The position numbers and the translations under genes are program-made. 44,514 bases of DNA from a virus: UHGV virus genome UHGV-1355725. The stretch is one strand, 5' to 3'. Shown here piece after piece: positions 667-41,202 of the stretch (positions within the stretch are counted from its first letter, which is position 1; each line of letters starts with the position of its first letter). Below the pieces are notes generated by a model. It did no database searches. It saw only the letters and a program-made list of their open reading frames with translations, and was not told the DNA's origin.

Positions 667-3162
667 TTAATTAAAGCCATTGCTGAATCCGTCGGAGAAA
701 CCGCTGCCGTATGGCGCGACGCCGTCGTATTTGTAGAAATCCGCCTCATAATTAATCCCGGTAATCTTAACTGTTCTGTCATCCCCGGGGTCAACTGTAG
801 AAACAAGAATCATCTGAGCATTATGCCTTGCTTCGTTGCCAAATGAAAACTCAGTTTTTAGGGCGCTATTCCCTGTGTAAATTGCCTCCTGCGGCGCGGA
901 TAGCATAATCACTTCACGGTCATGACCCCCTGGAACAACAGCAACACTCTGGACACCGCCGTCGCGCTTCTTAAGGATAAGAGAGTGGTCATCACCAGGA
1001 GTGAATGTGACAGGCTGCGATAAAGTCAGGGCAAGACCATTAACAGCAACAACATAGCCGTCTTGGGGTGCAATACGTGAACCTTTAACTACACTTATTG
1101 CCCGTCCTGGAAGCACAAAAACACCTTCTTCTGTTGCCGTGAAAGACACAGTTACTTTTTTCAACAAGTTCTTTTGATACCGTCGGTACGCGGCCCAATA
1201 TGCCTGTCGATAGTTACGGATACCTTTAGAGTCATACGTTTCGGTATTAATTCCTCCTTCGGCCGGGATGCTAATAGTCTCTTTTACGTTCGTATCCGGG
1301 TCGATATAAGAGAACTTAAGACTATCGTATACCTGAGCGTCGTTAAATGTCCTGGTCCACTTCTCGGATGCCGTTGTTTTGCTACGGTGGGTGAATACCA
1401 TCTCCGGCCCCATGCGAGGGCGCTCGAAATCCAGTAATATGTCCTGCCCTTTACGATACGGCGTACAGAAAATAGCGTCGGCTATGGTGCTGATTATGTC
1501 CTGCATAGTCGTTTTGTAGTCATCGAACGTGTAGCAGAATTGCCCTGCCTCCGCGTTCCCAAAATAACCTTCAATCTCTGCCTGCGTAGCCAGCAACTTA
1601 TCCATGTTAGCTGTGGTGAGATTGAGATTACCTACTACCGGGTCGCGGGCGAGACGGATTAATGACTGAACGGCCTGGGTATTAGGCGTCATTACAGTGT
1701 CGAACACACCGTTACCGAGGTATTTGTAGACCATCTCCGTAGCGACCATTCGCAGTTGTGGTTGTTTAATCTCCGCCGCCCGCGGCGTCTGCTTACGCGC
1801 GGAGTGTACGGTAGTACGATTGCCGTAATGCGGCGTAGTGTCGCGAACCTGCCCGTAAAGGTTGATGTAGGAAACCTCGTCTACCACTGTACCGCCAAAG
1901 TCAAAATCAAAGTTACTAACCCTGCGACAGCGCACCCTAACCCTGGATTCAATTGGAAGGTCAGCGTACACAGTGGCACCCGTGTAATCGCTAGTACGAC
2001 CTGAAATAGTTCCCTGTTTATTGTATACAGGACCATAAGGAACTCCGTCATCTCCTATTAATTGGTACTGAACTTCAACGGTTACAGAGGTCCCCTGTTT
2101 ATTGCCGTCGTCTTTATACATGCCATTTGCCGCGGCGAAGTTTGCCACGACGCGCCCAACCTTTATTCTGTTAAGAGAGACCCAATCTGTTAGGCTAGCG
2201 TCATATGTGCCGGTAGGCCCTATGGTCGCGGCTTTATCCTGCGTTACATAGCCTTCACGCACTCCTCCCCCCTGATCTGGTAGAGTCTGCCACTCAGATA
2301 GTTTTGGGGAAGCATTTACCGTTATCTGGAATTCGTCCACACTTAATACGGAGTATACCCCGTCTAAATTACCACCGCCTTCCGGCCGTATCCATGTAAA
2401 TGTAGCTTGGTCTCCCGGGGCAATGTAGGTATTGAATGCCGAGTCTCCCGTTGGGTCGGTTATTGTCCCTGCGGTCCCGACAAGACGCGCGCGGGCCGAG
2501 CTGCCCACGTTGTTAGCGAGGTCATTTGGTGCTTTTAAAACAGCTCCGTCTACTTCATTGGACGCTATAGTTATGAATAACCCCTGGTTTATGGGGTCGC
2601 CGACCAACAACTGCGGGGCATTCGTGTTGTTGGGTGAAGTGAAAGGCGCGTACACAGCAACGGAGGTCCCGGTAATCTCCTGTACTTTAGTGTCCCCGTC
2701 GGTAATATCTTCTGCTTTAATATCAAGGTAACCGCGACCAGCATCATAGTATCCGTACTCAATAACACGACCGGCGGTATTAAATACCTTATACGTGGTC
2801 ATGAGGTCATTAGGGATAGTCTGGACCCTGCCGCAAATATCATACGACCGTTCATACGGACGCGATTTATTATTTCGGTCTGTCAGGCTGTTGTTGGGTG
2901 ACTCCGCTTGCTGGTTAGCAAGACTTGTTTTTGGTGTTTTCTGTGACGGTGAAATCAGCTTAGTAACAAACTTAAGTACACCTAACGGGTCGAGCAGTTT
3001 ACCCAGAAAACCGCCGCCACCCCCGGCACCCTCAATGATGTGGAATACATCGTCTTCTTTCAGCGCTTCGAAGTTTTCTGTAACTTCTGTATCTTCGCCG
3101 ATTTCACCTCGATAGATGCGAACGGGTACGCCGTCCGGGATGTTAGTGACGACGTATTCCAT
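667..3162 (-). CDS. large distal tail protein (tail tip / central fibre, J-like)
   Basis: 831-aa ORF from ATG at 3162 (MEYVVTNIPDG...); last large gene of the tail module before the tailspike; Gly-rich segment GAGGGGGF. Function is positional inference. Confidence 0.45.
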   Translation of the reverse strand: MEYVVTNIPDGVPVRIYRGEIGEDTEVTENFEALKEDDVFHIIEGAGGGGGFLGKLLDPLGVLKFVTKLISPSQKTPKTSLANQQAESPNNSLTDRNNKSRPYERSYDICGRVQTIPNDLMTTYKVFNTAGRVIEYGYYDAGRGYLDIKAEDITDGDTKVQEITGTSVAVYAPFTSPNNTNAPQLLVGDPINQGLFITIASNEVDGAVLKAPNDLANNVGSSARARLVGTAGTITDPTGDSAFNTYIAPGDQATFTWIRPEGGGNLDGVYSVLSVDEFQITVNASPKLSEWQTLPDQGGGVREGYVTQDKAATIGPTGTYDASLTDWVSLNRIKVGRVVANFAAANGMYKDDGNKQGTSVTVEVQYQLIGDDGVPYGPVYNKQGTISGRTSDYTGATVYADLPIESRVRVRCRRVSNFDFDFGGTVVDEVSYINLYGQVRDTTPHYGNRTTVHSARKQTPRAAEIKQPQLRMVATEMVYKYLGNGVFDTVMTPNTQAVQSLIRLARDPVVGNLNLTTANMDKLLATQAEIEGYFGNAEAGQFCYTFDDYKTTMQDIISTIADAIFCTPYRKGQDILLDFERPRMGPEMVFTHRSKTTASEKWTRTFNDAQVYDSLKFSYIDPDTNVKETISIPAEGGINTETYDSKGIRNYRQAYWAAYRRYQKNLLKKVTVSFTATEEGVFVLPGRAISVVKGSRIAPQDGYVVAVNGLALTLSQPVTFTPGDDHSLILKKRDGGVQSVAVVPGGHDREVIMLSAPQEAIYTGNSALKTEFSFGNEARHNAQMILVSTVDPGDDRTVKITGINYEADFYKYDGVAPYGSGFSDGFSNGFN

Positions 3163-3224
3163 AGGACTACTCGTGTGACGTTTACGGTCGAAGGTTCCGT
3201 CTTCGTTACGGGTGTAATGTAGTA

Positions 3225-3590
3225 TTAGCGCCAAAATTCTATCTCCGCATAAGTGTCTCGCAAGTCTTCCAGACGGTCTAATCTGACCTGACGGCTTGCG
3301 AGTTCGCAATGACTAACCATTCCGTCATAATATACGCCAGCGTGCCAGATTACACGGTTTCTGTGCCGCGCTGCCATCAGAACGGCATCGAAGTTTTGCG
3401 GAGTTTCAACACGTACAAGGCCTTTAGTGTCTTTATGGCCTTCTTCAAAGGCCGCATTAATCTGTGTTGGTGAGGCAACATTAAACTCCGGCGTGTCCAA
3501 ACCGGCGTCTGCGCGAACATTGCGGACATGGTGCCAGCAATTATGGCGGCGAAAGTCGTAAGGCAGACCCGTGTAGGTGTTAATTTTCAT
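3225..3590 (-). CDS. minor tail / tail assembly protein
   Basis: 121-aa ORF in the tail-tip cluster; Cys/His-containing motif RHNCWHH; overlaps neighbours by 4 nt (operon coupling). Confidence 0.35.
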   Translation of the reverse strand: MKINTYTGLPYDFRRHNCWHHVRNVRADAGLDTPEFNVASPTQINAAFEEGHKDTKGLVRVETPQNFDAVLMAARHRNRVIWHAGVYYDGMVSHCELASRQVRLDRLEDLRDTYAEIEFWR

Positions 3591-37298: not shown

Positions 37299-37466
37299 CT
37301 AAGGGTCGAAAATCATGTTTTTCTGTAAGCACGTATACCGATATATGAAACCGCTTCCGTGGTACGCGGATGAGTACCGCGCCGGGTACAGGCATGTGTG
37401 GATTTGCCGTGATTGTATGAAAATAAGACTCAGCGAAACGAAGGCAATGGATTTAAGGAAAAAGAA

Positions 37467-40400
37467 ATGAGCTACTTATACCTGGACTTTGAAACATTCT
37501 CCGAAGCCGATTTAAAGAAAGTCGGCTCCTACGCTTACGCCGAACACCCGTCAACCGAAGTTCTTATCTGTACATACGCTTTTGACGACGAGCCTGTACA
37601 GGTATGGGACTGCACAGACGGCAGCGACATGCCTGGGGATTTGCACCGCGCACTACGCCGTCTGGTGAAACCAAACAGCCGCATTAAGATGGTGTGGCAT
37701 AACGGCTCAATGTTCGATCGCCTCATCATGAAACACTGCTGGGGCTTTGATATTCCGGTAAGTAACACCATTGATACGATGATTTGGGCGTTTCGTCACG
37801 CGCTGCCGGGTTCACTTGACGCATTGTGTGAAGTGCTGGGCGTGTCCGCAGATAACGCGAAAGACAAACGTGGCAAGGCGCTGATTCAGCGTTTCTCTAA
37901 ACCTACACCGAAGAACTACAAAATCCGCCGCTACACCGCCGAAACACACCCGGACGAGTGGGCGCTGTTCATCAAGTACGCCGTGAGTGACATCACTGCG
38001 ATGCGCGAAGTATTCCATAAGCTGCCTCGTTGGGGTAACTCAGAGTTTGAAGACCGTGTACTGGAACTGGACCAGTTAATTAACGACCGCGGGTTTAAGG
38101 TTGACGTCGCACTGGCGGAAGCCGCGATCGAAGCCGTGGAGAAGCACAAGACACAGTTACAGGAAGAAGCCCAACGCAAATACGGCGGCTCGCTTACTGG
38201 TAAAGACTTCCTCCCTATTCTGCGTGAACTCGCCCCAGCGCACCGCATCCACAATGCGCAGAAGTCTACGCTGAATGACCTGCTGGCAGACGACGATTTA
38301 CCGGACGACGCCCGCGCGATTATAGAAATGCGCCTCGGGGCCGCGTCCACCGCGTCAACGAAATATAACCCATTGCTATTAGGCCGCTCATCGGACGACC
38401 GTCGCCGCGGTTGTTTACAGTACGGCGGGGCAAAACGTACCCTGCGATGGGCGGGTAAAGGCTTCCAGCCGCAGAACCTGGCGCGCGGTTACTATCACGA
38501 TGATGAACTGGATAAAGGCATTTCTGCGCTACTTAAGGGCCGTGCGCATCGCCGTTTTGATGTAGCCAAGCTAACGGCATCGACGGTGCGTAGCTGCATC
38601 ATACCGGAAGCCGGATATAAGTTTGTCGTCGCCGATTACTCTAACGTTGAAGGCCGCGGGCTTGCGTGGCTGGCGGGCGAAGAAACCGCGCTTGATACGT
38701 TCCGCGCCGGACTGGATATTTACTGTGTAACCGCAGGTAAGATGTTCGGCATGGACCCCGACGATATTAAGAAAGAACGTAAAGACTTGCGCCAGATTGG
38801 TAAAGCGTGCCTTCACCGTCATACCCTAGTTTTGACCGATGGCGGATTTAAGGATATTATGGCGGTTACATCAACAGATAAAGTATGGAGCGGTGAAAAA
38901 TGGGTGAATACAAAAGGCGCGCACCTTATGGGGTGGAAACCGGTAATAAATGTGGACGGGGTGCTAATGACCGAAGACCACAAAATCTTGGCGCATTCCT
39001 GGAAGCAGGCAAAGCAACTCGCTTCAAACAGATATATGATGGGCCTCGCCCTGGAGAGAGGTATGGACGCCTGGTTATCCTGCGCGAGTTACCAAAACGA
39101 CAAGGCCAAAGACAACTACTCGTCCAATGTGATTGCGGAGAGATGCCGTGGCGGGTCTATTACGACAATGTCAGAGCGGGTAAAACCACTCAATGCAACC
39201 GCTGCGCCCTTGAAGCAACAAAAAAATATCGTAAACAGTATTTCTGCTACGAAGACGCAATGCCGGATGATGCGCACAGAACAAGATTACTCAACCGGCT
39301 GTCCGCGGCGATCACGCGAACAACAAGCCCCAGGAATAAGGGTTATAAAAACTATGGTGCCAGGGGCATCACGGTATTCGACCAGTGGAGGACTGATAAA
39401 AGGTCGTTTCTTGGATATGTTCAAACTCTGGAAGGCTGGGACGACCCAAACCTCGAAATGGATAGAATCGACACAGACGGTAACTACGAACCTGGAAACA
39501 TTCGGTTTGTCAGCCGTTCTGAAAACTGCCGAAACAGACGGCAAATACCCGAGCTTCAACGAAAGTATGATGCAGCCGTTGCCCGCATTGCTGAACTTGA
39601 ACGGGAAATTAGCCTATTGCGAGCCGGTGTACGACCTGATTGATGTGGAAGACGGCAACCGTTTTCTTATAGCCTCAGACTCTGGCTTTCTTGTGGCGCA
39701 TAACTGCGAGCTTGGCCTCGGCTATGAGGGGGGTGTCGGTGCTTTCGTTACGTTTGCTAAAAACTTAGGTCTTGACCTTATCGAGATGGCAAAAACAATG
39801 GACGGTACTTTCCCGGGCCACATATGGGCAGCTACCGCACGCGGTTATGAGTGGGCGCGTATCCAGGAAGCAAAGCGACCGCCGCAGCCCGGCGAAAAGG
39901 ACGACCGACCGTCGTATATTTTGGACAAGAAAGTGTGGCGCACATGCGACGCGATCAAGCGTATGTGGCGCGAGTCACACCCGGAAACAGTAGCGTTCTG
40001 GCGCGACCTTAAAGACGGAATTTTAGCCGCTGTGCGTAATCCAGGTCGTGAATTTTGGGCGGGGGCACACTTGCGCAGGAATGGGGAAAGGGCAATCCGC
40101 ATATGGCGTACTGTAGAATTTGATTCATCCGGTAGGAAGGTTCCTGGTTGGTGGTTATGCATGGAGTTGCCGTCAGGCCGCATCCTCTCGTATCCGGGAA
40201 TCGGCGTTAGTGTGACAAAGGAAACAGACGAAGACGGACGGGTAAACACGAATGTGCGAATCAAGTATCAGGGGGAAAACCAGTTAACCCGCCAATGGAC
40301 CACCCTGTACACACACGGCGGCAAGGCCTGCGAAAACATTGTTCAGGCGCTGTGCCGCGATTTACTTGCCTATGCGATGATTAACGTTGAGGGTGGTGGG

Positions 40401-40565
40401 TATCCCATCGTGCTTTCTGTACACGATGAATTGGTATGCGAAACTCCAGATACGCAGGAATACAACGTGGCTGAACTGGAAAAATTAATGTGCGCGTTGC
40501 CGGAATGGGCAGAAGGCTTCCCTCTTGTAGCGGAAGGTGCGGAGATGAAGCGTTATGCTAAGTAA
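37467..40565 (+). CDS. family A DNA polymerase with 3'-5' exonuclease domain, interrupted by an intein
   Basis: Exo motif YLDFETFS, motif A VVADYSNVEGRGLAWL, motif C VLSVHDELV; ATG 37467 with RBS AAGGAA; a 299-aa insertion splits motif B (RQIGKA / CELGLGYEGG). Confidence 0.85.
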   Translation: MSYLYLDFETFSEADLKKVGSYAYAEHPSTEVLICTYAFDDEPVQVWDCTDGSDMPGDLHRALRRLVKPNSRIKMVWHNGSMFDRLIMKHCWGFDIPVSNTIDTMIWAFRHALPGSLDALCEVLGVSADNAKDKRGKALIQRFSKPTPKNYKIRRYTAETHPDEWALFIKYAVSDITAMREVFHKLPRWGNSEFEDRVLELDQLINDRGFKVDVALAEAAIEAVEKHKTQLQEEAQRKYGGSLTGKDFLPILRELAPAHRIHNAQKSTLNDLLADDDLPDDARAIIEMRLGAASTASTKYNPLLLGRSSDDRRRGCLQYGGAKRTLRWAGKGFQPQNLARGYYHDDELDKGISALLKGRAHRRFDVAKLTASTVRSCIIPEAGYKFVVADYSNVEGRGLAWLAGEETALDTFRAGLDIYCVTAGKMFGMDPDDIKKERKDLRQIGKACLHRHTLVLTDGGFKDIMAVTSTDKVWSGEKWVNTKGAHLMGWKPVINVDGVLMTEDHKILAHSWKQAKQLASNRYMMGLALERGMDAWLSCASYQNDKAKDNYSSNVIAERCRGGSITTMSERVKPLNATAAPLKQQKNIVNSISATKTQCRMMRTEQDYSTGCPRRSREQQAPGIRVIKTMVPGASRYSTSGGLIKGRFLDMFKLWKAGTTQTSKWIESTQTVTTNLETFGLSAVLKTAETDGKYPSFNESMMQPLPALLNLNGKLAYCEPVYDLIDVEDGNRFLIASDSGFLVAHNCELGLGYEGGVGAFVTFAKNLGLDLIEMAKTMDGTFPGHIWAATARGYEWARIQEAKRPPQPGEKDDRPSYILDKKVWRTCDAIKRMWRESHPETVAFWRDLKDGILAAVRNPGREFWAGAHLRRNGERAIRIWRTVEFDSSGRKVPGWWLCMELPSGRILSYPGIGVSVTKETDEDGRVNTNVRIKYQGENQLTRQWTTLYTHGGKACENIVQALCRDLLAYAMINVEGGGYPIVLSVHDELVCETPDTQEYNVAELEKLMCALPEWAEGFPLVAEGAEMKRYAK
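38808..39704 (+). mobile_element. intein in the DNA polymerase
   Basis: Begins CLHRHTLVLTDGG, block-B-like GVLMTEDHKILAHSW, ends VYDLIDVEDGNRFLIASDSGFLVAHN followed by extein Cys; the central part of the host frame is open but compositionally non-protein-like. Confidence 0.65.
38900..39643 (+). CDS. HNH-family endonuclease encoded in an alternative frame inside the polymerase intein
   Basis: Codon phase offset by one nucleotide from the polymerase; motifs RYGRLVILREL, CDCGEMPWRVYYDNVRAGKTTQCNRC, YKNYGARGITV, IDTDGNYEPGNIRFVSRSENCRNR; ATG 38900 preceded by GGAG/GGTGA; exact start uncertain. Confidence 0.6.
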   Translation: MGEYKRRAPYGVETGNKCGRGANDRRPQNLGAFLEAGKATRFKQIYDGPRPGERYGRLVILRELPKRQGQRQLLVQCDCGEMPWRVYYDNVRAGKTTQCNRCALEATKKYRKQYFCYEDAMPDDAHRTRLLNRLSAAITRTTSPRNKGYKNYGARGITVFDQWRTDKRSFLGYVQTLEGWDDPNLEMDRIDTDGNYEPGNIRFVSRSENCRNRRQIPELQRKYDAAVARIAELEREISLLRAGVRPD

Positions 40566-40917
40566 ACTGATTATCGCGGTACTGGCGGGATTCGCCGCCG
40601 GGGTCTACTGTCACGAAGGCCAATACGGCATGATTGTCGCCGTATTAGGTATGTTCATCGCAATTTATCTGTGGGTGATGGAATGAAAATTTACTGGTTC
40701 TACGAAGAAGACTGCCGAATCTGTCCGCGCTGTGGTATTGAACATACGAAACGTGAGGGGTGCGTGTTATGACAATGTTTGCATTTTGGACGATAGTAAC
40801 CATGCTCGCACTGTTACTCGGCGCGGGAATAGCCGCGATGTTCTGTTATGGCCTGTTCTTTAAGTTTGTCGGTGTTGCCGTTCTAGGAGGGGCTTTCCTT
40901 ACTTGGGTTCTGCGTTC

Positions 40918-41202
40918 ATGACCCCGGAAGGCAAAATACAGAAATACGCAAAAGAGCGATTCGAGGCCCTTGGGGGCCTCGTACGCAAATTGTCGTACGA
41001 AAATAGAGCAGGAGCGCCCGACCTGCTGGTAATTCTCCCCCGCGGCATCGTCTGGTTCGTCGAGGTTAAGAAAGACGAAAATACGAAGCCTGACCCGCAC
41101 CAGCTACGGGAACACGAGCGGATGCGTAAACGTGGTGCGAATGTTTTTGTCGTTGGTTCGTTTAAACAGGTTGACGACCTAATAGCGAGCTATTATAGTT
41201 AA
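40918..41202 (+). CDS. VRR-NUC domain nuclease
   Basis: Motif GAPDLLVILPRGIVWFVEVKKDEN...QLREHE typical of VRR-NUC. Confidence 0.6.
   Translation: MTPEGKIQKYAKERFEALGGLVRKLSYENRAGAPDLLVILPRGIVWFVEVKKDENTKPDPHQLREHERMRKRGANVFVVGSFKQVDDLIASYYS
41171..41199 (+). promoter_or_regulatory. class-2 promoter with embedded inverted-repeat operator
   Basis: TTGACG (41171-41176), 17-bp spacer, TATAGT (41194-41199); inverted repeat AATAG-CGAG-CTATT 41181-41194; lies within the 3' end of the VRR-NUC gene. Confidence 0.5.

Follow-up and report, generated by a model that had tools for sequence, protein, structure and literature searches.

Inteins are usually taught as single polypeptides that splice and cut DNA. 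In the canonical bifunctional inteins (LAGLIDADG and some phage HNH types) the HINT splicing domain is interrupted by endonuclease DNA, the elements sit at a conserved catalytic motif of the host protein and are sporadically distributed, and the endonuclease is part of the same polypeptide. Other arrangements have been described: some actinobacteriophage inteins carry endonuclease VII-like genes in 'frame 3' (Gosselin et al., 2025, bioRxiv 10.1101/2025.01.02.630785), an HNH endonuclease is hidden out of frame in the DNA methylase gene of mycobacteriophage ShiLan (Arsenault et al., Genes 2025, PMC11855218) and, in fractured genes, split inteins flank a free-standing endonuclease gene (Dassa et al., 2009, PMC2677866). 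Here we analyze UHGV virus genome UHGV-1355725 (44,514 nucleotides; the whole stretch is hereafter called the window), a Kagunavirus-like (Guernseyvirinae) Escherichia coli phage genome of about 44.5 kb with about 88% identity to known isolates. Its family A DNA polymerase (PolA) gene is interrupted in motif B by what is very probably a mobile intein, the homing endonuclease of which is a separate gene nested in the -1 frame and not a domain of the intein polypeptide. Like the canonical inteins, the element combines an interrupted HINT domain, a location in a conserved catalytic motif and a sporadic distribution, but the endonuclease is encoded in another frame and belongs to another polypeptide, and the in-frame segment is an unconstrained linker.

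The actinobacteriophage inteins resemble this element in being contiguous, in having the endonuclease between the splicing blocks at the same frame offset, and in that the in-frame translation of the endonuclease region has no recognizable structure; they have been read as the result of a free-standing endonuclease gene invading an intein, and their distribution suggests continuing transfer (Gosselin et al., 2025). The window, too, has an open reading frame (ORF) that is flanked by the splicing blocks and runs in another frame of the same strand, with the host frame open through it. The endonucleases differ, however, being endonuclease VII-like in the actinobacteriophages, whereas here a zinc ribbon is combined with a DRID-type HNH-like motif; moreover, the host gene here is PolA, at motif B, the carriers are enterobacterial and many uncultured phages, the family is large (302 loci) with several insertion points, and stop avoidance could be quantified. 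A term search of the preprint finds no mention of a start codon or of a Shine-Dalgarno (SD) sequence, whereas an SD-like site, an ATG and a candidate promoter are conserved here.

The ShiLan case is alike in that a phage gene of an essential type contains an HNH gene in another frame while staying stop-free in its own, and in its homing-like spread; it differs in having no detectable splicing domains, so that the insert is thought to stay as a loop, and in its proposed GTG start with no ribosome-binding site and leaderless initiation (Arsenault et al., 2025), whereas in the window HINT blocks flank the insert and an SD-like site precedes an ATG. Fractured genes also place an endonuclease gene of the free-standing type between intein halves, which supports an origin in an invaded splicing element, but there the host gene is physically split and the product trans-spliced (Dassa et al., 2009); here the host frame is continuous and splicing would occur in cis. 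Free-standing HNH/AP2-type endonucleases (e.g. Staphylococcus phage 812 gp70 and a putative HNH homing endonuclease of Bacillus phage Izhevsk) share with the nested protein the domain order, the G.R.G.L.V motif, the Cys4 ribbon, YGGRGI and DRID...N...N; they are encoded by intergenic, stand-alone genes, whereas the gene described here is embedded in, and co-linear with, the intein coding sequence. In our literature search, out-of-frame homing endonucleases within an intein or a host gene were found only in the two 2025 papers, which come from one group, and no paper was found on an out-of-frame layout for the SETP3/Jersey/K1-type polymerase intein. The layout was thus recognized recently (2025) and is no longer unprecedented; new here are a different endonuclease family and host gene, the quantification of selection on both frames, the conservation of translation signals and the very large size of the family.

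Results

An in-frame insert in motif B of the polymerase gene

The polymerase ORF matches Pfam DNA_pol_A (9.6e-17) and the DNA polymerase family phrog_17 (5e-133), and its true start is likely the ATG at 37467. The precursor and the insert are organized as follows (all on the plus strand; a slash marks an insertion or splice junction):

37413..40565, plus strand: family A DNA polymerase precursor ORF (N-terminal 3'-5' exonuclease, then polymerase), 1050 aa, from the ORF list
38808..39704, plus strand: intein, 299 codons in frame between Ala and Cys in motif B (RQIGKA/CELGLGYEGG)
38808..39020, plus strand: coding sequence of the N-terminal splicing (HINT) domain, variable sites mostly at polymerase codon position 3
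38970..38981, plus strand: block B, TEDH, within the N-terminal splicing domain
39021..39614, plus strand: polymerase-frame linker, reading through the nested gene with no stop and without protein-level constraint
39615..39704, plus strand: C-terminal splicing domain, blocks F and G (...VYDLIDVEDGNRFLIASDSGFLVAHN), variation back at polymerase codon position 3
39705..39707, plus strand: the +1 Cys, directly after the intein HN
38900..39643, plus strand: nested endonuclease gene, -1 frame (equivalently +2) relative to the polymerase, 247 aa plus stop

Polymerase residues 466-764 (38808..39704) read CLHRHTLVLTDGG...TEDH...FLVAHN and are followed by Cys. Comparison with the uninterrupted allele of phage HSE2 (...GKA/CELGLGYEGG) gives an insert of exactly 897 nt, in frame, at a conserved site and missing from orthologous alleles (HSE2 and others). 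The insert has the residues expected of an intein, namely the nucleophile C1, the TxxH motif T55-E-D-H58, and H298-N299 followed by the +1 Cys. C1, TxxH and HN/Cys are invariant in six divergent lineages and present in most of 80 loci from a wider census (see below); Y95, D96, R105, G113, H118, N119 and C120, in the C-terminal splicing domain, are likewise invariant across the six lineages. When the N and C parts from these lineages were joined into an intein-end profile and searched against the PDB, the top matches were the Neq (Nanoarchaeum) Pol split intein (E = 1e-4), Spl DnaX (4.5e-3) and Mtu RecA (8.5e-3), and 11 of the 12 matches with E <= 0.3 were named inteins, at modest E-values (1e-4 to 0.3). 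Single-sequence phmmer searches of the PDB returned nothing useful for the intein or for the nested protein. An hhalign comparison of a mini-intein profile with Npu DnaE (E = 0.031, probability 1.6%) was given no weight. Together, the essential nature of the polymerase, the open frame and the purifying selection on the splicing blocks suggest that the insert is removed by protein splicing.

Selection acts on different frames in different segments

Variable sites were counted by polymerase codon position in a 12-sequence alignment, and the ratio of non-synonymous to synonymous divergence (dN/dS) was estimated by the Nei-Gojobori method. In the first 92 nt of the intein, 12, 7 and 19 sites vary at polymerase codon positions 1, 2 and 3, and in the last 61 nt the counts are 4, 1 and 17; across the core (39039..39614, 192 sites at each position) they are 44, 141 and 67. 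Because polymerase position 2 is position 3 of the HNH frame, the core varies as a gene read in the HNH frame and the ends as a gene read in the polymerase frame; the changeovers lie near 39000-39020 and near 39610-39620. Between the window and the relative L010, the core gives a dN/dS of 1.10 when read in the polymerase frame and of 0.12 when read in the HNH frame, and the N-terminal splicing part gives 0.08 and 1.32, respectively. Polymerase-frame values range over 0.06-0.2 in the N-terminal splicing domain and over 0.75-1.66 in the linker, which contains peptides such as SITTMSERVKPLNATAAPLK, whereas in the HNH frame dN/dS is about 0.1 within the window's own clade (pN 0.011, pS 0.116; the proportions of non-synonymous and synonymous differences). 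Over the segment 38900..39038, where the nested gene overlaps the N-terminal splicing domain, the polymerase frame dominates (dN/dS 0.20-0.46, against 0.68-0.79 in the HNH frame, in the more divergent comparisons, with L010 and L013). The DNA is divided between two products, with the low-confidence, little-constrained part of each lying over the functional part of the other.

The polymerase frame is also kept free of stop codons by selection. Synonymous codons were permuted inside the nested ORF, a conservative test in that the ORF's own codon composition is kept. The window has no polymerase-frame stop where a mean of 5.4 is expected (P = 4e-4), and 23 stops in the third frame. The same holds for five lineages (0 stops against 2.7-5.4 expected; P(0) from 5e-5 to 0.02) and for 40 loci (0 stops against a mean of 4.0 expected; median P(0) = 0.003), in which the third frame has a mean of 16.7 stops. 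Both frames are thus under selection.

An earlier reading of the window, made from the sequence only, had placed a 299-aa intein at 38808-39704 within motif B, and the HSE2 allele together with Cys1, TEDH and HN/Cys shows these coordinates to be exact. The endonuclease ORF that it had drawn at 38900..39643 in a shifted frame, with a possible ribosome-binding site and ATG, is indeed preceded by a GGAG 9 nt upstream of the ATG. It had further likened the central 170 codons of the polymerase frame to non-coding translation; this frame evolves neutrally there, its lack of stops is beyond chance, and the stretch is longer, about 190 codons (roughly 39020..39614).

Relatives, insertion points and mobility

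By megablast, the full element was found in 151 of 379 related phage records, at 90-95% identity, and uninterrupted alleles occur in equally close relatives. The element-bearing records include Salmonella Jerseyviruses (SETP3, f18SE, FSL SP-101), E. coli Kagunaviruses and Sodalis phage SO-1. When IMG/VR was scanned for patterns drawn from an alignment of 65 nested-protein sequences, 302 loci on viral contigs were found; the best 80 of them (L024-L103), with 41-98% protein identity to the nested protein of the window, were examined. The two-frame layout is present in 79 of the 80: the frame one base downstream of the HNH frame, always at the same offset, is open across the nested gene for 600-1226 codons and has the C1...HN/C termini inside a polymerase, and the nested ORF is intact. 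In the related polymerase inteins as well, then, the HNH domain lies out of frame, as first noticed in the window. The sole exception is Salmonella phage SS3e (L012 / L036, 40,793 bp), in which indels break the polymerase and put the N-terminal splicing domain in frame with the HNH sequence; these indels are probably sequencing errors. They have given rise to a database protein, 'HNH endonuclease [Salmonella phage SS3e]' (P0007, 268 aa). No in-frame HINT-HNH fusion was found among the 120 proteins listed in one search, nor in the eight longer sequences retrieved from the 150 listed in another.

At least three positions in a five-codon stretch of motif B harbor -1-frame inteins (e.g. L024, L074, L049, L086), the +1 Cys being at K+2 (GKA/CELGLGY), K+3 (GKVA/CLALGY) or K+6 (GKVQELA/CGFAGG, GKTTILG/CGYGMG). 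Such a spread of sites would agree with cleavage by the endonuclease close to, but not at, the insertion point. PolA inteins with a relative of the nested gene in the +1 frame were found in Caulobacter phage KcrB (L021, OQ137561) and Streptococcus phage Javan101 (L022, MK448666), each at about 1700-2700; the KcrB intein occupies a third site, near motif C (...TYSGKL/C...HN/CENVVQA), and the Javan101 intein the K+6 site of motif B. In both, the polymerase frame across the nested gene is an Arg/Ser/Gln-rich read-through. The +1-frame cases suggest repeated independent invasions.

Divergence within the element is low. In comparisons of the window with Salmonella phages, pS is 0.32-0.66 for the exteins, 0.11-0.12 for the HNH core and 0-0.10 for the splicing ends, and the flanking polymerase exceeds the intein 3-5-fold in synonymous divergence; at the nucleotide level, the intein is 96-97.5% identical and the flanks are 80-92% identical. 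This low divergence, together with the presence or absence of the element among close relatives, is the expected signature of, and would point to, recent homing across phage genera and continuing horizontal transfer.

The nested protein

The product of the nested gene matches the PHROG family phrog_374 'HNH endonuclease' (E = 2.9e-46) and other families so labelled, its BFVD matches are labelled HNH, AP2 or homing endonuclease, and it has a weak match to an endonuclease VII PHROG (7e-5). It has 285 metagenomic homologues, almost all of 230-260 aa, and at E <= 1e-3 its superfamily numbers 115,132 cluster representatives, 474 of them with E <= 1e-30. No paralogue was found elsewhere in the window. 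An AlphaFold2 (AF2) model has a mean predicted local distance difference test score (pLDDT) of 84.6 and is confident except for residues 1-22 (pLDDT < 50), beyond which confidence climbs gradually up to residue 45. The first 45 or so residues are poorly conserved and coincide with functional codons of the splicing domain. The model comprises a Cys4 zinc ribbon, a helical region, a beta-beta-alpha unit and a long C-terminal helix, which map to the window as follows:

39047..39208, plus strand: zinc-ribbon module, residues ~50-103 (GERYGRLVIL...CDCG...CNRC), with conserved Cys
39452..39535, plus strand: beta-beta-alpha (His-Me finger-like) motif, residues 185-212, LEMDRIDTDGNYEPGNIRFVSRSENCRN
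39545..39628, plus strand: long C-terminal helix, probable coiled coil, AF2 helix 216-243

Twenty-four residues are invariant across the 65 aligned sequences. Among them are the ribbon cysteines C77, C79, C99 and C102, and the Pfam CapR homology domain (PF21817) matches the ribbon region in 15 of the 65 members. The long helix has weak bZIP- and DivIC-type Pfam matches, and its last codons overlap the C-terminal splicing domain. In the beta-beta-alpha unit, N200, N209 and N212 are invariant, which provides the structural Asn and the metal-ligand Asn/His of an HNH motif. The position of the canonical catalytic His, however, is an invariant Arg in all 65 (D188-R189, MDRID), a substitution also seen in free-standing relatives (812 gp70, 'IDRIN'; KcrB, 'LDRID'); as a speculation, the nearly invariant H126 could substitute for the missing His. 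The designation 'HNH-type endonuclease', given to the ORF at first sight, is therefore borne out by phrog_374 and not by the catalytic residue, and the protein is best labelled 'HNH-like', its putative nuclease activity following from the annotation of its relatives.

Related domain arrangements were seen among the database matches. Proteins of 395-604 aa (P0131, P0132, P0133, P0146, P0157) have two to five tandem zinc-ribbon modules (G.R.G.L.V...C.CG...C..C) followed by one HNH-like domain, and several of these tandem proteins start with MG..., as nested ORFs do. In P0179 (451 aa), an N-terminal part of the SNF2 helicase type (...LTGTPLPNRP) is fused in frame to a zinc-ribbon and HNH-like protein; this may be another gene interrupted by the same endonuclease family.

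Start signals of the nested gene

Two candidate expression signals precede the nested ATG, both within codons of the N-terminal splicing domain:

38832..38860, plus strand: candidate sigma-70-type promoter, TTGACC-17 nt-TATTAT, 10/12 consensus, 40 nt upstream of the ATG
38887..38890, plus strand: Shine-Dalgarno-like GGAG, 9 nt upstream of the nested ATG (38900), in the W-S-G-E-K-W codons of the intein

Start signals were surveyed in 46 non-redundant loci. The nested start codon overlaps the conserved Trp of W-x-G-x-x-W-V and is ATG in 39 loci, GTG in six and TTG in one. In 45 of the 46, the 18 nt before the start can form an anti-SD duplex of -6 kcal/mol or lower, against 17% of background positions, and the four-fold-degenerate Ala/Ser codons before the conserved Trp end in A in ten cases out of ten. 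The HNH frame is interrupted by a stop a few codons before the start, both in the window and in the majority of the 46 loci. The candidate promoter, written in the V-L-T-D...D-I-M codons, scores at least 9/12 at its position in 26 of the 46 loci; in the -35 element, Leu9 is TTG in 29/43 loci (13% in the exteins of the same genes), and in the -10 element Ile17 is ATA in 17/39 (11% in the background).

Annotation of the element in existing records

Existing records label the element inconsistently, as an intron (SO-1), an HNH endonuclease (SS3e), an uncharacterized protein (LPSE1) or plain polymerase. In the SO-1 record (GQ502199, L020; 3313-6501 and 4259-5017), both gp38 and the nested gp39 are annotated as 'contains type I self-splicing intron'; as the underlying sequence shows the layout seen here, an intein plus a -1-frame ORF, the intron annotation is probably wrong. 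Gene callers often choose the nested ORF, and the polymerase is then either missed or called in fragments, e.g. in L017 (ENA metagenome scaffold, 1081-3458) and P0122-P0124, some pieces beginning at internal Met codons of the linker. This is probably why the protein database returned 285 matches to the nested ORF and only five full precursors. Downstream of the polymerase, the window has a 99-aa ORF (40903..41202) that begins MGSAFMTPEGKIQKYAKERFEALGG, and in 'DNA polymerase I [Salmonella phage SE40]' (P0121, 452 aa) the C-terminal part of the polymerase is apparently fused to a homologue of this ORF, which suggests a deletion or a mis-assembly in the SE40 record.

Discussion

In the arrangement that we favor, ribosomes on the polymerase mRNA would read through the nested gene and produce a linker of about 190 residues, constrained only to be stop-free. 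The ends of the insert (about 70 and about 30 residues) would form a HINT domain, excise the 299-residue insert and restore the polymerase. The endonuclease would be made independently, translated from its own ATG (38900) behind an SD-like site and perhaps transcribed from a sigma-70-type promoter of its own (38832..38860), these expression signals all being written in codons of the N-terminal splicing domain. In a mixed infection, the enzyme would cut intein-less polymerase alleles near motif B, and repair would copy the whole element in (homing). The sequence-only reading had proposed, as one of three alternatives, an independently translated gene overlapping the intein, with the host frame held open by selection, and it is this alternative that the frame-specific selection, the stop avoidance and the SD-like site with its start codon favor, translation of the gene being presumed from these signals.

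The other two alternatives fare less well. Two compensating single-base indels, introduced by sequencing or assembly, might mask a conventional intein with an in-frame HNH domain, and in the SS3e record indels do disrupt the polymerase and bring the N-terminal splicing domain into frame with the HNH sequence; but the same layout, with both frames open, recurs in 151 independently sequenced phage genomes and in 79 of the 80 contigs, some with as little as 41% protein identity, synonymous variation changes phase at shared positions, with the two frames selected in different segments, and no in-frame fusion was seen among the listed proteins that were examined, so that we put the chance of such an artefact at practically nil. 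Programmed -1 frameshifting would instead yield a fusion of N-extein, N-intein and HNH ending at 39643. Although the nested ORF lies in the -1 frame in all 79 loci, the direction of most programmed frameshifts, nucleotides 1-260 of the window intein contain no slippery heptamer (X_XXY_YYZ), heptamers occur in 8 of 47 loci only, at scattered positions with none conserved, the HNH frame is closed by a stop just upstream of a start codon with an SD-like stretch, and the RNA structure around the nested start is ordinary (z = -0.5); frameshifting is therefore very unlikely.

HNH genes related to the nested ORF are often intron-borne in phages, and the type I self-splicing intron label of gp38 and gp39 in GQ502199 implies that the insert is a group I intron with a free-standing endonuclease ORF inside it, spliced out of the RNA and not out of the protein. 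No Rfam intron model, however, matches 38500..40000 even at E <= 10, and no P3-P8 core was found; moreover, the insert is a multiple of three and the host frame is stop-free in 79 of the 80 loci, neither of which an intron needs, and the ends are under purifying selection as protein, carry Cys1, TxxH and HN/Cys and have inteins as their best PDB matches. We find an intron barely conceivable. A decaying nested ORF, unexpressed or inactive, within what is now a vertically inherited splicing insert is unlikely. The Arg at the catalytic His position, the loss of a near-invariant Cys in the window's clade and an in-frame stop in the nested ORF of one relative (L015) speak for such a relic, but the Arg is the family norm, common to annotated free-standing relatives, and the HNH-frame dN/dS of about 0.1 in the window's own clade, the 24 invariant residues and the intact ORF in 79 of the 80 loci speak against it, as do the age of the intein, far below that of its exteins, and its patchy occurrence in close relatives.

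A number of observations weigh against a mobile intein with a nested, independently expressed endonuclease gene. Scans of both frames with the intein models of Pfam and NCBIfam gave no match. The sequence-only reading had counted the lack of a match to an intein model as grounds for rejecting the intein; such a lack is seen in these model collections, but the six-lineage end profile has solved inteins as its best PDB matches. The AF2 model of the in-frame intein (pLDDT 37, linker about 25), built on a shallow alignment (5 + 5 homologues), is uninformative and was used for no claim about the fold. The HNH models of Pfam and NCBIfam did not match the nested protein at E <= 1-10, and at its residue 141 (39320..39322) the window's clade has Thr where 62 of 65 relatives have Cys (RCHNP to RTTSP), although purifying selection persists in the clade despite this change. 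Part of the SD-like and start sequences is dictated by the peptide W-D-G-E-x-W-V, which is also found in the HNH-less Neq Pol intein. The promoter is treated as a candidate because its motif is largely forced by the peptide V-L-T-D...A-I-V, because its score in the window alone is not significant (P = 0.2) and because the family-level binomial tests and the promoter codon counts ignore phylogenetic relatedness.

The nested endonuclease may perhaps be fully autonomous, with promoter, ribosome-binding site and start all inside splicing-domain codons, at synonymous or motif-constrained positions, and the mini-intein and its out-of-frame gene may form an ancient, stable and widespread partnership, spanning hundreds of phage lineages, several insertion points and both the -1 and the +1 frame, not a fleeting intermediate; we advance this tentatively, as a possibility somewhat short of an even chance. 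If so, read-through of the start region by polymerase-translating ribosomes might tie expression of the endonuclease to translation of the polymerase, and the long-postulated stage at which an endonuclease gene invades a splicing element would be represented by a living, successful form. The ~100-residue splicing core, with its freely replaceable 190-residue linker, is of possible interest for intein engineering, and the E. coli and Salmonella phages, which are easily grown, offer a system for testing the intein-invasion model, the expression of hidden genes and selection for a stop-free 'spacer' frame. The locus and its relatives directly support the model in which the splicing element came first and the endonuclease gene invaded later, with splicing and endonuclease functions kept in one stretch of DNA, in two frames and as two proteins, stably and at large scale.

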